Shown here piece after piece: positions 24,189 through 29,267 of a stretch of 64,000 nucleotides of DNA. The number at the start of each line of letters is the position of its first letter. The stretch's first letter is position 1. The DNA is taken from positions 45,624 through 109,623 of the forward strand of contig JAXGQB010000015.1 of the NCBI GenBank assembly GCA_040766655.1, given 5' to 3'. Made by a program: the position numbers and the translations under genes. A model generated the notes under the pieces. The model searched no databases. It was not told the DNA's origin and saw only the letters and a program-made list of their open reading frames with translations. Source of the DNA: Anaerolineae bacterium. Lineage in GTDB: Bacteria; Chloroflexota; Anaerolineae; CG2-30-64-16.

Positions 24189-25055
24189 ATGAAGATTACC
24201 AAGGCTGTGATCACCGCGGCCGGTCCCCGGCAACGAACCCTGCCCCTTCAGACCGTGGTCGACCGTGACGGCGTGCAGAAGTCGGTGTTGCAGATCGTGC
24301 TCGAAGAAGCGCAGCGTGCCGGCGTCGAGGATATCTGCGTCGTCGTCTGTCCCGGAGATGAAGTCCCGTACGCCCGCGCGGCGGGCAAGCTGTCAGCACG
24401 CCTGACGTTCGTGCCCCAGGACCAACCGCGGGGTTACGGCGATGCGATCCTCTGTGCACGGCCATTCACGGGCGATGAGGCCTTCTTGCACCTTGTCGGC
24501 GATCATCTCTGGGTCAGCGCGGGCAGCGAGGGATGTGCTCAGCAACTGGCCGCTGTGGCAGCCCAGGAAGCCTGTGCCGTCAGCGCCGTGCAGGCGACGC
24601 GCGAGACCTTGCTGCCTTACTTCGGCACGGTCGGCGGCCGGCGGCTGGCAGGAAGACAGGACCTGTATCTGATCGAGGACGTGATGGAGAAGCCGACGCC
24701 CACGGAGGCCGAGCAGCGCCTGCTGGTGCCGGGCCTGCGCGCCGGCCACTATCTCTGCTTCTTCGGCCTGCACGTCTTCACGCCGGGCATCATGGACATC
24801 CTGGCGCACATGGCCGGGCAGGATCGCGATGGCGTGACGCTTTCACGTGCGCTGGCCCTGCTGGCCGCCCAGGAACGGTATCTTGCGCTGGAGCGCCCCT
24901 GGTTCCGTTACGACGTCGGCGTCCAGTATGGTCTTCTGATCGCCCAACTCGCGCTGGCCCTCTCCGGACGCGATCGTGACCTTGTGCTCACGCAGCTTCT
25001 CGAGCTTCTGGCCGCGACGCGTCGTGAGATACAGAGCAGCCGGGAGGCGGCGTGA
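24189..25055 (+). CDS. GalU-like sugar-1-phosphate nucleotidyltransferase with a divergent NTP-binding loop
   Basis: [21 protein letters not shown], compared with the usual AAGxGTRxLPxTK; 288 aa. Its stop overlaps the next start (GTGA). Confidence 0.6.
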
Positions 25056-28000
25056 CCGGGCAGCTCGTTTCGATCATCACATCCTCCCATCCAGATGTGC
25101 GCAACCGGTCTGTGGATGCGTGGGCGCGCTCGGCGACAGCGGAGGAGCTGCTGGCCGAATGCGCGGACCTCGAAGCATTCCGCAAGCGAAGCACGAATCT
25201 CTACGAGCGGGTTCGTGCGCTGCTCTTTCTGTATGACATCCATCGCTTCCACCTGCCGAATAAGGCCGGCGTCGACGAACTCGGTTTTGTGGCGTTCGAT
25301 GGGTACAACTACCTGTTGAGGCGCCGGTTCGAAGAGGCCATCCAGGTCTTCCTGGGCGAACAGGCCAGGCAGGGCCCGAACCAGTCTGTTTCCAGCGCGC
25401 TGGCTGCGGCCTATCATCACCTGGGATTCCAGACGCTGGCCGACCAGGTCCGGCGCAGCGTGCGCTCCGTGCGCGGGAACCAGTGGATGTTCCGCATCGG
25501 TCATCCGGCCGACCAGCCGCTTCGCATCCGTCCGGAGCTGCTGGCCCGGCCCGAGAACGAGGGGCCCTATCCCATCCTGTGTGAGACGACGCCGGTGCGC
25601 ATGGACCTGTCGCACAGTGCGTGGAGCGATATCTTCTTCCTCGGCATGGACTTTCCTGAGGGCGCACGCGTCCTCAACATATCGATCGACCTCGGCGTGC
25701 GCGGCCGCGACGCCGAGCCGCGCCCCCCCGTGGAGGCCTACCTCCGCGTCATCGATGAGCCGATCCTGCGGCTTGCCAGCGTCGACCTGGCCGCCCGCGC
25801 GGATATCACCAGCCTCGCGGAGGTGTTCGATTTTGCCCGCGACTACCTGGGCTTGCTCAAGGCCGCCCTGATCGCCTCGGGCCTCGTCCCACCCGGCATG
25901 GAAGGCTCCGAGGAGCGCCTGGCCGATCTGCTGGCTCGCCTGGTTGGGCCGGGCCGCGGCATCGAGCTGGTCAGTAACGTCAACGGCATACCCAAGGGGT
26001 CGCGCTTGGCTGTCTCCACCAGCCTGCTCGCCTGCCTCATCGCCTGCTGCATGCGGGCCACCGGCCAGGCCCGTTCCCTCACCGGACAGCTGGCCGAACA
26101 CGAACGCCGGCTGGTGGCCGCGCGTGCCATTCTCGGCGAGTGGCTCGCCGGATCGGGGGGCGGCTGGCAGGACTCGGGCGGGGTGTGGCCGGGCATCAAG
26201 CTGATCACGGGCGTGTTGTCCGGCGCAGACGATCCTGAATACGGCATCAGCCGGGGCCGCCTGCTGCCCGACCATCGCATCTTCGGCCCGAATGAGGCGT
26301 CACCGTCGACCCGGCAGGCGCTGCAGGAAAGCCTGGTGCTCGTGCACGGGGGGATGGCGCAGAACGTCGGCCCGATCCTGGAGATGGTGACGGAGAAGTA
26401 CCTGCTGAGGTCGGAGGCAGAGTGGCTGGGCCGGCAGGAGGCGTGCCGGATCCTCGACCAGGCTGTCGACGCCCTGCAGCGGGGCGATATCCGCCGGCTG
26501 GGCGCCCTCACCTCGCGCAACTTCGCCGGGCCGCTTCAGACGATCATCCCGTGGGCCACGACCCTCTACACGGAACGGCTGATCGAGAGGGTGAAAGCGC
26601 AGTACGGCGAGCACTTCTGGGGATTCCTGATGTTGGGCGGCATGTCTGGCGGCGGGATGGGGTTCATCTTCGATCCCTCCGTGCGCGCTGCGGCCCAGGA
26701 CCAGATGCAGCAGATCATGTCTCAGGCGAAGCGGGAACTCGAGTCGGCACTGCCCTTCGCCATGGAGCCGGTCGTTTACGACTTTGCCATCAACGAGCGG
26801 GGCACGTGGGCTGTCCTGCTGGGCGGGAGAAGCGACCCGGAGGGCGCCGATCATGCACTGCCCCTGATGCCACCGGGTTACTACGCCATGTTCGTGCCCG
26901 ACCTGGTGCGGCTGGACCGCCGCCAGCTGACCCCGTGCCGCCGTGCGGAGCTTGCACTGTTTGCCGCTGCCGCACGCCGCGCGCCGGCGCTGGCCGGCAT
27001 GGTGCACACCATGTTCGATCGGCTGCTCCCGTCCGCAGCTACGTCTGACGACCAGGAGAACGAGCGGACGCTCGAAGCCATGTTGGCCGAGCATGGCTTC
27101 GATCCGGTGCAGCATGAGCAGATCCGCGCCGACATGCGCGCGGGCCGGCTGGGGCTGGCGCAGAATCGCCTGCCTGCCAACAGCGACATCCGCGATGTCG
27201 AACACGGCGAAGTGTTCGACGCGGGTGAGGCCCTGGAGTCTCTGGCGGAGTATCGCCGCGAGGGGCTGGAGGCGTTGCGCTCGGGTGCAGTGGCGGTGGT
27301 GACGCTGGCGGGCGGCGTCGGGACCCGGTGGACGCAGGGTGCAGGCGTGGTGAAGGCGCTGCATCCGTTCTGCCGGCTGGGCGGGCGGCATCGCACCTTC
27401 ATCGAGGTGCACCTGGCCAAGAGCCGGCGCATCGGCCGGCTGGCAGGCAACCCGCTGCCACACGTCATCACGACCAGCTACCTGACGCACGGTCGCATTG
27501 CCGCGTACCTCGACCGCGAGGGCCATCACCGTGATGGCGGCCGGCCCGAGCAGGCGGACGCCTTCGGCATCCTGTCGCCCGGCAGGGCCATCGGCCTTCG
27601 CCTGGTGCCGATGGCGCGCGATCTGCGGTTCGCCTGGGAGGAGATGCCCCAGCAGCTCCTCGACGAGCAGGCGCAGAAGGTCCGCGAGAGCCTCCACGCG
27701 GCGCTCATCGCGTGGGCGCGGGAGACGGGCGAGGTCAGCGACTACAGGGATAACCTGCCGCAGCAGTGCCTGCATCCGGTGGGGCACTGGTACGAAGTGC
27801 CGAACATGTTCAAGAATGGCGTGTTGGCGCAGTTGCTGAGGGCGCAGCCGGCCCTGCAGTACCTGATGGTCCATAACGTCGACGTGCTGGGCACGGACGC
27901 TGACCCGGCAGTCGTCGGGTGGGTGATGCGCAGCGGGCGTGCATTCACTGCCGAGGTCATTGCGCGCAGCATTGAGGATCGTGGTGGCGGCCTGGCGCGC

Positions 28001-28456
28001 ATCGATGGCCGCATCCGGCTGCTGGAAGGACTGGCAATGCCGCACGAGGAGGACGAATTCGGTCTCTCCTACTACAACTCGAACACGAGCTGGCTGCAGA
28101 TCGACCAGCTTCTGCGGATCTTCGGCCTGACGCGGGAGACCATTCTCGCCGCGGCCGACGGCGACATGGCAGCCGAAGAAGCGATCACAGTGGGCATCCG
28201 GCGCGTTGCGGCGCGTATGCCGACCTACATCACGCTCAAAGATGTGAAGAAACGCTGGGGGTATGGCCAGGAGGACATCTTCCCTGTGGCTCAGTTCGAG
28301 AAGCTGTGGGGTGACATGACCGCCTTGCCCGACCTGCCGTGCGGTTTCATCGCCGTGCCGCGCATGCGCGGCCAGAACCTTAAGGATCAGGCGCAGCTCG
28401 ACGGTTGGTTGCGCGACGGCTCAGCGACCTACGTGGAGAGTCTCTGCGAATGGTGA
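25052..28456 (+). CDS. 1134-aa fusion: unassigned N-terminal region, a GHMP-kinase/fucokinase-like middle, and a C-terminal UDPGP-type (eukaryotic-type UDP-sugar) pyrophosphorylase
   Basis: GHMP-like motifs [27 protein letters not shown] and [14 protein letters not shown] at about aa 310-540. UDPGP-like motifs [12 protein letters not shown]...[15 protein letters not shown] and [14 protein letters not shown] at about aa 745-1010. Confidence 0.6.
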
Positions 28457-28491
28457 ATGGGCCGATCAACAGCATGGAGGCGTGAACGAGG

Positions 28492-29040
28492 ATGTTCATA
28501 CTTCTCACAGGTCAGCGCGGCAGCGGCAAGACGACTGCCTGCTGGAAGGCGCTATCGGAGTTGCGCGGCAGCGGCCTTAAGCTGGCGGGCTTCATCTCCC
28601 CCCCGTTGCTCGATGCCAACGGCAAGAAGTCGGGCATCGAGATGCTCGATCTCACGACGGGCGAGCATCAAACCTTCGCCCGCATCGTCGGGCCCGACGA
28701 AGGACCGGATGTCGGCATCTACAGGCTGGAGCCCGGCGCCATCGATTGGGCCCAAAGAGTGCTGTCCGCGGCGATCGTATCCGACATGGACTGGCTCGTG
28801 CTCGACGAAATCGGGCCGCTGGAGCTTCATCAGGGTGGCGGGTTCGCGTTTGCGTTGCCGCCGCTGGCGGACGCAGTGCGCATTCCCAACGCGATCGTCA
28901 TCGTGCGGCCCGAACTGGTCGACGAGCTGTCCGATCGCCTGGGACGGACGGATATCGTGCGGTTCGAGGTGACCAAGGACCGGCGAGCGACGGCGCCGGG
29001 CAGGTTGGTCAGGTTGACGAGGGAGGTGCAGACCGAATGA
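28492..29040 (+). CDS. P-loop NTPase, THEP1/DUF2478-like
   Basis: Walker A GQRGSGKTT and a Walker-B-like WLVLDEIGPLE; 182 aa. Confidence 0.6.
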   Translation: MFILLTGQRGSGKTTACWKALSELRGSGLKLAGFISPPLLDANGKKSGIEMLDLTTGEHQTFARIVGPDEGPDVGIYRLEPGAIDWAQRVLSAAIVSDMDWLVLDEIGPLELHQGGGFAFALPPLADAVRIPNAIVIVRPELVDELSDRLGRTDIVRFEVTKDRRATAPGRLVRLTREVQTE

Positions 29041-29267
29041 GCAAGCTTGTGCTATCGGAGAAATACGGCATCGCCGCGGCCATCGGCCTCCTGCTGCTGA
29101 CAGCGCTCAACAGCGCGACCCTGATGCTCGTTGGCTCCGTCTTAGGCTTGGTTGCCGGGATCTGGGTGATCAGGCAGGGCGACGCGCGGCGGGTCGCCGC
29201 GGTGGCACTCGCGGGGTTTGCGGTCGCGGCAGTCTTCGCGATCATCGGCCTGGTGCGCACGCTCTGA
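29037..29267 (+). CDS. 76-aa two-TM membrane protein
   Basis: The ATG overlaps the previous stop (ATGA). Two hydrophobic helices: [32 protein letters not shown] and [21 protein letters not shown]. Confidence 0.45.

Follow-up and report, generated by a model that had tools for sequence, protein, structure and literature searches.

A Conserved Gene Pair from an Anaerolineae Bacterium Encoding a GalU-like Protein and a GHMP Kinase/UDPGP Pyrophosphorylase Fusion, a Putative Operon for UDP-Sugar Formation

Introduction

The closest described counterparts of the system considered here are bifunctional enzymes in which a single polypeptide carries a kinase acting on the anomeric position of a sugar together with a pyrophosphorylase that forms a nucleoside diphosphate sugar (NDP-sugar), as in Bacteroides fragilis Fkp. 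In the Fkp kinase, a 2025 structure paper distinguishes an Arg that stabilizes the leaving group, a Trp that stacks on the sugar, a general-base Asp and metal-binding Ser/Thr residues (PMC11982464). Further bifunctional kinase/pyrophosphorylases are plant FKGP, Leishmania AFKP80 and the zebrafish glucuronokinase/pyrophosphorylase (see also PMC3938481), and the use of USP, a pyrophosphorylase for uridine diphosphate (UDP) sugars, is mentioned for Bifidobacterium (PMC5974040). The present work concerns two adjacent genes, g1 and g2, in a 64,000-nucleotide stretch of DNA from an Anaerolineae bacterium (GenBank assembly GCA_040766655.1, contig JAXGQB010000015.1, positions 45,624 to 109,623 of the forward strand), referred to below in its entirety as the window. 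The first gene, g1 (24189..25055, + strand), encodes a 288-residue homologue of GalU-like sugar-phosphate nucleotidyltransferases, and the second, g2 (25052..28456, + strand), an 1134-residue fusion of which g1 is the conserved partner.

An earlier note, made from the letters of the window, had described four co-directional open reading frames joined by start/stop overlaps, g1 and g2 being followed by two smaller genes, g3 and g4. All four lie on the + strand, with GTGA at 25052-25055, where the g2 start overlaps the g1 stop, and ATGA at 29037-29040, and each of the motifs quoted in that note is found in the translations. Its domain calls (GalU-like, GHMP/fucokinase-like, UDPGP and THEP1-like) are likewise upheld by profile, Protein Data Bank (PDB) and Foldseek matches.

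Results and Discussion

Domain architecture of g2

The middle of g2 (residues 175-590; 25574..26821, + strand) is a GHMP kinase domain of the fucokinase/HddA type, identified by NCBIfam, PDB and Foldseek comparisons. The NCBIfam model of Fkp, PRK13412, aligns with residues 178-559 at an E-value of 8e-22 through model positions 612-951, which represent the kinase part only; the score of 76.7 bits falls below the curated cut-off of 721, and g2 thus fails as a whole-protein Fkp. Residues 178-539 match the PDB Fkp chains 9iip/5yys at 4e-12 (phmmer), and the corresponding part of a low-confidence model matches Fkp 9iit/9iip in Foldseek at 1e-10.

The C-terminal part (residues 721-1134; 27212..28456, + strand) is a UDPGP pyrophosphorylase domain of the eukaryote type (UGPase/UAP/USP family), assigned through Pfam and Foldseek. 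The Pfam model UDPGP (PF01704) is matched at 3.6e-13 and 49.5 bits against a cut-off of 22 over residues 904-1024, so that Pfam significance is limited to the central ~125 residues of the domain. Residues 902-1024 also match eukaryotic UGPase chains in the PDB at 1e-6 by sequence, and a profile search of the PDB gives UGPase at 7e-12. At the fold level, the C-terminal ~460-500 residues of the low-confidence model align with whole UAP1/AGX/UGPase chains at E-values from 1.9e-11, with a template-modeling (TM) score of ~0.5 on the target. Kinase and pyrophosphorylase are separated by a linker (residues 591-720; 26822..27211, + strand), which is mostly helical according to the model secondary structure and is the least conserved part of the protein.

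The earlier note had left ~300 residues at the N-terminus of g2 outside known domains. Such a segment does exist, at ~170 residues, given that the alignment with Fkp-type kinases begins at 175-178. Modeled alone with AlphaFold2 on a 95-sequence alignment, residues 1-170 (25052..25561, + strand) form a confident all-helical domain with a predicted local distance difference test (pLDDT) score of 90.7. Relatives outside the g2 family were not detected: the Pfam scan gives no match, and the Foldseek search against the PDB no significant one, the best hits being TPR-like helical proteins at an E-value of 0.24. The idea of a split Fkp, which would equate g1 with the N-terminal domain of Fkp and residues 1-170 of g2 with the Fkp linker, was rejected after BLAST and hhalign comparison with the Fkp of a Prolixibacteraceae contig, where similarity is confined to the kinase; the hhalign probability for the g2 N-domain against real Fkp is 0.05%, and Fucose_pyrophosphorylase (PF07959) is absent from the Pfam scans of g2.

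With mean column identities of 0.65 for the N-domain, 0.74 for the GHMP domain, 0.53 for the linker and 0.69 for the UDPGP domain, every domain of g2 is under strong purifying selection, and the gene call itself is not a chance one, because thousands of full-length homologues exist. Conservation extends to the final residues, C1132 and the terminal W1134 being invariant in a 35-sequence alignment (window 28400-28456). Conservation that reaches the end of the chain is unusual and suggests a structural or catalytic role for the C-terminal tail.

Catalytic residues and loops of g2

The active-site residues of the g2 kinase were read from a profile alignment to Fkp, with residue roles taken from the structure paper (PMC11982464). 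The leaving-group-stabilizing R592 of Fkp corresponds to R183 in g2, the sugar-stacking W599 together with D601 to W191 and D193, E751 to E363, and the pair Q761/D762, of which D762 is the general base, to Q373/D374 within an invariant GGGWQD motif. The metal-binding S719/S720 are found as S322/T323. The positions that do not match are T602, which is Ile in g2, and the loop glycines G715/G717, which are Arg/Ala.

GHMP motif III is present, and motif II occurs in the form GSRLAVSTS. This phosphate-binding loop, a 12-residue segment at 25988..26023 (+ strand) whose Fkp counterpart is IPAGSGLGTSS, carries an Arg in place of the Gly preceding Leu (Fkp GSGLGTSS). The Arg is fixed in >370 main-clade sequences and also occurs in a clade at 45-49% identity to g2, whereas relatives at 32-37% identity retain GSGLAVST.

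In the pyrophosphorylase domain, the nucleotide-binding loop LAGGxG[ST]RW...GVVK is invariant or near-invariant across the g2 family. Family alignments place it in the window at 27305..27331 (+ strand), where it reads LAGGVGTRW and is followed by the conserved GAGVVK. The UGPase motifs PxGH, NxDxLG, GGG and YNSN also align in the profile alignment and are conserved.

The GalU-like partner g1

In Pfam, the g1 protein is assigned to NTP_transferase with an E-value of 6.6e-9. Among NCBIfam models, galU (TIGR01099) scores highest for it, with 86.7 bits, under the equivalog cut-off of 326.8, and its closest solved structures in a PDB search are Bacillus subtilis YngB and GalU enzymes, at 1e-16. A departure from GalU lies in the N-terminal loop, a segment of 12 residues at 24216..24251 (+ strand) delimited by an alignment of 73 orthologues and an alignment to YngB. 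The orthologue consensus is AAG[RP][NR]QRTLPLQ as opposed to AGLGTRxLPxTK in GalU: relative to GxGTRxLPxTK, it retains the Arg equivalent to GalU R21 and lacks the second Gly, Thr and Lys. In addition, the GDD of GalU reads GDH in the g1 orthologues.

Positions that contact glucose-1-phosphate in GalU are retained and conserved in the same 73 orthologues, namely MEKPTP (E201-K202 of the GalU 'EKP') and RYDVG (D265). The region of the uracil-contacting Gln (Q..PxGxG) aligns with GalU/YngB and is conserved as well. These motifs suggest that g1 is derived from GalU, with the sugar-phosphate pocket intact and the triphosphate loop rebuilt.

Escherichia coli GalU needs T20 and R21 for full activity, and its T20M/R21H double mutant has a Vmax ~1000-fold lower; wild-type GalF has M-H at the two corresponding positions (PMC4643126). 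By motif analogy, g1 most likely serves g2 as a regulatory or ligand-binding subunit with weak or no catalysis, in the manner of GalF beside GalU or of GMPPA beside GMPPB. Alternatively, it may provide a second, specialized uridylyltransferase activity.

Distribution and pairing of g1 and g2

The g2 arrangement, called unusual in the earlier note, is widespread. The protein database yielded at least 8000 scored homologues, and carriers number at least 597 among the GTDB species representatives. They belong to at least eight phyla, which include Chloroflexota, Verrucomicrobiota, Planctomycetota, Acidobacteriota, Armatimonadota, Bacteroidota/Rhodothermales, Lentisphaerota and Myxococcota, among others, and some of the carrier genomes bear the names of cultured species such as Litorilinea aerophila and Phycisphaera mikurensis. 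The nearest genome relatives among the matches listed belong to the Anaerolineales (Chloroflexota). Over ~1100 residues, the identity of g2 amounts to 0.70-0.72 within phyla and 0.66-0.68 between them.

Gene neighborhoods were compared in 80 GTDB loci anchored on g2 and in 80 metagenome loci anchored on g1. In 72 of the 80 GTDB loci, g2 is immediately preceded by a g1 orthologue in the same orientation (54-76% identical); only 75 of the 80 extend far enough upstream to show it. In the reverse search, started from g1 on metagenome contigs, 76 loci were informative; g2 follows g1 directly in 67 of these and at a greater distance in 4 others. In 48 of 73 loci the two genes overlap or lie no more than 30 bp apart, and their distance matrices are correlated (Mantel r 0.71, a value reached in 0 of 999 permutations). 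The conserved unit is therefore the g1–g2 pair, and the pair is co-inherited.

Three apparent natural fusions of g1 with g2 (P0166, P0197 and P0266) were considered as Rosetta-stone evidence and set aside as artefacts: only partial segments match, and the junctions fit a frameshift in g1 running into the g2 frame, the two frames being different because the genes overlap by 4 bp.

On a Prolixibacteraceae contig (L089:7147-17637), the g1–g2 pair stands in a nucleotide-sugar neighborhood: behind it come two genes for SDR epimerases/dehydratases and then a canonical 955-residue Fkp, which lies 3.4 kb from the pair; since Fkp coexists with it there, the pair is not merely an Fkp substitute. A cultured Bacteroidota strain, Hymenobacter volaticus, carries the pair on a 242-kb plasmid (NZ_CP095065.1, 42130-63447), the only plasmid carrier found. 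The g1 copy of this plasmid bears the annotation 'sugar phosphate nucleotidyltransferase' (WP_245127105.1), and the g2 homologue, at 51.5% identity, appears as four tblastn pieces with no listed coding sequence. This plasmid copy of g2 is probably a pseudogene.

Putative function

Considering the domain identities, the retained catalytic residues and the co-inheritance of the two genes, we favor, with moderate confidence, a reading in which g1 and g2 constitute an autonomous operon of two genes for the conversion of a sugar, or of a sugar phosphate, to a UDP-activated sugar. In a first step, the GHMP domain of g2 would phosphorylate the anomeric hydroxyl of a sugar, possibly of a sugar phosphate, with ATP as donor, and the UDPGP domain would then join the sugar-1-phosphate to UTP, giving the UDP-sugar and pyrophosphate. 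The helical N-domain and the linker would hold the two active sites together, probably along with g1, which, its triphosphate loop rebuilt, would still bind a hexose-1-phosphate or a UDP-hexose-like ligand.

Several observations weigh against this assignment. The domain searches proposed in the earlier note are borne out in Pfam for UDPGP, and the Pfam GHMP models stay below their cut-offs: GHMP_kinases_C (PF08544) scores 16.4-19.2 bits against 21, and GHMP_kinases_N (PF00288) is not detected in g2 by the Pfam scan. A distant g2 relative, P0154, does pass GHMP_kinases_N. An Arg in place of the phosphate-loop Gly is unusual for active GHMP kinases, and it could indicate a different phosphate donor, a phosphorylated substrate or a loss of activity. 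The full-length AlphaFold2 model of g2 is poor (pLDDT 59.9) because the alignment is shallow, and the inter-domain geometry was therefore left unused. The role ascribed to g1 follows from motif reasoning. Furthermore, no glycosyltransferase, transporter or phosphatase is consistently nearby among the 80 main-clade loci, and a cross-phylum identity of 66-68% is unusually high for a salvage enzyme, which hints at unexplained constraints.

In a second reading, g1 and g2 would form a stable hetero-complex whose three modules make or sense a product other than an ordinary salvage UDP-hexose, for example a UDP-heptose, an activated compound of the cyclitol type or a phosphorylated nucleotide sugar. 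Here the Arg loop of the kinase and the rebuilt loop of g1 would both be adaptations to a phosphorylated or nucleotide-linked substrate. We regard this reading as rather unlikely; it draws its weight from three unexplained features, the cross-phylum conservation, the Arg of the GHMP loop and the orphan N-domain. If true, it would reveal a new branch of nucleotide-sugar metabolism, widespread among Chloroflexota, Acidobacteriota and the PVC phyla.

The same conservation, very high and flat within and between phyla, would also be compatible with a metabolite-sensing or regulatory complex, or with a product that is not a nucleotide sugar, at least one of the three nucleotide/sugar-binding domains then being a pseudoenzyme. 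A conserved helical N-domain without relatives, non-canonical loops fixed in both g1 and the g2 kinase, and the lack of consistent metabolic neighbors could be understood in this way. However, the general base and metal-binding Ser/Thr of the kinase and the UDPGP nucleotide loop are intact and invariant, distant clades of the family are found in clear glycan-synthesis operons, and no defense models are matched, so that this reading appears quite unlikely. In particular, a defense-system identity for g1-g4 was examined and rejected, no PADLOC component model being matched at E-values up to 0.01.

A catabolic role can be envisaged as well. In a bypass of the Leloir pathway of the Isselbacher type, the kinase and the two pyrophosphorylases would together replace GalT: g2 would make the sugar-1-phosphate and then the UDP-sugar with pyrophosphate, an epimerase encoded elsewhere would lead to UDP-glucose, and an active g1 running in reverse would release glucose-1-phosphate and regenerate UTP. 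This scheme would account for the constant company of a kinase and two pyrophosphorylase-type proteins of different kinds, and it accords with the glucose-1-phosphate-binding E-K and D of g1 and with the retained loop Arg equivalent to GalU R21. The carriers belong mostly to Verrucomicrobiota, Planctomycetota, Anaerolineae and Acidobacteriota, which are known as polysaccharide degraders, and zwf and pgl lie directly downstream of the pair in the lineage of the window. Nevertheless, the g1 loop is without its second Gly, Thr and Lys, its GDD is replaced by GDH, and GalU itself loses ~1000-fold Vmax in the T20M/R21H mutant (PMC4643126). Moreover, no epimerase is linked, zwf-pgl is conserved in 3 loci only, and the g2 kinase is closer to fucokinase/HddA than to galactokinase. 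On balance, such a bypass is considered unlikely.

Distant relatives and the heptose-like alternative

An exhaustive search of representatives recovers full-length g2 relatives down to 32% identity. At this limit, P0322 (32% identical) stands in a one-strand cluster (L085:6072-19324 and L086), which comprises, in order, a beta-PGM-like HAD, a 397-residue GmhA-like SIS protein, the fusion, a 771-residue CelA/PgaC-like GT2, a 526-residue unassigned protein, a GH9 and a further GT2. By its gene content, the cluster resembles a synthase operon that is provided with NDP-sugar by a heptose-style route of its own. Closer in sequence, P0271 (Nitrospirota, 45%) and P0361 (49%) are without g1; in both, genes for a DUF362 protein, a methyltransferase and a SuhB-like inositol monophosphatase (IMPase) come after the fusion. 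The two loci concerned are L087:11220-13835 and L088:11318-13945; their fusion proteins are 45% and 49% identical to g2 of the window, and their DUF362 proteins are 84.5% identical to each other.

Two giant polypeptides of low GC content contain the helical, GHMP and UDPGP core. In P0143 (2318 residues) it is joined by two ROK-like modules and an IMPase domain, and in P0159 (2939 residues) by a C-terminal ROK domain and ~660 unassigned N-terminal residues. In P0246 the two halves of g2 occur in the opposite order. The contig of P0154 (1015 residues; L083:1-21440) bears archaeal-type ribosomal proteins L19e and L5e; therefore the g2 family reaches Archaea, in a very different context, with seven radical-SAM genes (one including a B12-binding domain) and an adjacent xylose-isomerase-like TIM-barrel gene. 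AP_endonuc_2, considered as a conserved neighbor, adjoins the gene in L083 and L084 without recurrence and was discarded.

In the distant clades, g1 is thus replaced by a SIS isomerase with HAD, by an IMPase, or by fused ROK and IMPase domains. Kinase, isomerase, phosphatase and glycosyltransferase partners are what is expected around an anomeric kinase with a nucleotidyltransferase, and these contexts support a nucleotide-sugar synthesis role for the g2 family as a whole.

They also raise the possibility of an NDP-heptose-like route in the window clade, in which a sugar already phosphorylated at its distal end would be phosphorylated at C1 in the manner of HddA, a phosphatase encoded elsewhere would remove the distal phosphate, and the UDPGP domain would make a UDP-sugar, the loop Arg binding the extra phosphate. 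Helpers fitting this route accompany the distant clades (SIS with HAD, IMPase twice, ROK/IMPase in P0143 and ROK in P0159), and the Arg is fixed in the main clade. Within the main clade, however, the 80 loci contain no phosphatase, isomerase or ROK kinase up to 8 kb from the gene, and none of the SIS, HAD, IMPase or ROK genes is found over that distance. Furthermore, the SIS and HAD clade keeps the ordinary Gly loop; the Arg therefore does not track the helpers. For the window clade this route seems improbable, and the two-gene UDP-sugar operon remains the preferred reading.

Neighboring genes

The earlier note had grouped all four genes into one sugar-activation module and had suggested a link to a glycan locus 8 kb downstream. 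The third gene, g3 (28492..29040, + strand), encodes a 182-residue THEP1-type P-loop NTPase that matches Pfam NTPase_1 (PF03266) at 7.9e-21 and 75.1 bits against a cut-off of 23.9, and NCBIfam PRK13695 at 2.7e-18, with the Walker A motif GQRGSGKT. The fourth, g4 (29037..29267, + strand), encodes a hydrophobic protein of 76 residues with 2-3 possible transmembrane segments as judged by eye; no family match was obtained for it in Pfam, NCBIfam or PADLOC.

An operon of g1-g4 feeding the glycosyltransferase cluster 8 kb downstream would agree with the co-directional genes and their overlaps or short gaps, and with the presence of g3 behind the pair in the three closest GTDB relatives. Neighborhood analysis from both sides, however, contradicts the co-conservation of the four genes: g3 is found in 3 and g4 in 2 of the 80 g2-anchored loci, the former in L003-L005, the three closest, and in 6 and 0, respectively, of the 80 g1-anchored loci. 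All-versus-all clustering of flanking open reading frames in 80 loci, under strict and relaxed thresholds, recovers g1 as the only recurrent neighbor. The top cluster other than g1, a GFO_IDH_MocA oxidoreductase of a very common family, occurs in 9 of the 80 loci, and no other exceeds it; a conserved glycosyltransferase neighbor is likewise missing among them. A four-gene operon is therefore very improbable, and the link to the downstream glycan locus finds no backing in these neighborhoods. The lineage-specific g3 and g4, zwf-pgl and the downstream glycosyltransferases are local neighbors outside the module.

Directly after g4 (window 29326-32189, + strand) follow, in the same direction, G6PD, a 6-phosphogluconolactonase-like gene and a methyltransferase of the PEMT/ICMT family; G6PD (zwf-pgl) stands behind the pair in three loci only, the contig of the window included. 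Upstream of the pair (window 15325-23964) lie a DDE transposase, a 1049-residue CLIPPER-repeat protein and an exosortase EpsH/EpsI pair, and then a divergently oriented pair of KAS III and KAS I/II-like genes. None of these upstream genes (transposase, CLIPPER-repeat, exosortase, KAS) is conserved beside the pair elsewhere. An Rfam scan for riboswitches and leaders returned no family anywhere in the window, and a promoter/terminator scan gave no signal exceeding the shuffled expectation.

Significance and comparison with known systems

Database labels for g2 read 'UTP--glucose-1-phosphate uridylyltransferase', 'UDP-N-acetylglucosamine pyrophosphorylase' or 'hypothetical'. Behind them stands a three-domain protein with an obligate partner, and its conservation is far tighter than in typical salvage enzymes. 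Naming the sugar on which g2 acts would add a missing piece to the glycobiology of poorly cultured phyla that abound in soil, sediment and wastewater samples, and it would correct a systematic annotation error. In addition, as a natural kinase/UDP-sugar pyrophosphorylase in a single polypeptide, g2 could be of use in making nucleotide sugars by chemo-enzymatic synthesis. The earlier note had not recognized the arrangement as a described system, and the literature searches agree: they returned Fkp-type enzymes, plant USP pathways and GalU/GalF papers, with no account of a kinase–UDPGP fusion and no characterized member.

Among systems in which a weakened paralogue modulates a pyrophosphorylase (GalF-GalU, GMPPA-GMPPB and the subunits of ADP-glucose pyrophosphorylase), g1 shows a similar alteration of the GxGTR loop. 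Unlike GalF and GMPPA, it is not a paralogue of the domain that it accompanies, NTP_transferase standing beside UDPGP, and it keeps the loop Arg.

The GDP-heptose pathway (HddA/GmhB/HddC with GmhA) resembles g2 in combining an anomeric GHMP kinase of the same broad subgroup with a nucleotidyltransferase. In g2 the nucleotidyltransferase is of the UDPGP type and fused, and the product is probably UDP- rather than GDP-linked. Helpers of this pathway (a GmhA-like isomerase with HAD, or IMPase) stand beside the distant g2 clades only and not in the window clade.

The eukaryote-type UGPase, UAP1/AGX and USP enzymes, which act in salvage with separate GHMP sugar-1-kinases, share the two chemistries and both protein families with g2. 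Compared with these pairs, g2 fuses the two enzymes and adds the N-domain and the linker.

The closest parallel is B. fragilis Fkp, which, like g2, unites an anomeric GHMP sugar kinase and an NDP-sugar pyrophosphorylase in one polypeptide, the kinases being homologous. As the earlier note had stated, the domain order is opposite and the pyrophosphorylase family differs: in Fkp, the canonical 955-residue protein of the Prolixibacteraceae contig (Fucose_pyrophosphorylase with GHMP) being an example, the pyrophosphorylase comes first and belongs to Fucose_pyrophosphorylase PF07959, whereas in g2 the kinase comes first and the pyrophosphorylase belongs to the UDPGP family. The helical N-domain of 170 residues, the GSRLAVST loop in place of GSGLGTSS and the obligatory GalU-like partner gene are further features that distinguish g2 from Fkp. 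Collectively, these comparisons suggest that g2 works like the known bifunctional kinase/pyrophosphorylases, and that it departs from Fkp in domain order, pyrophosphorylase family, model score, partner gene and N-domain.

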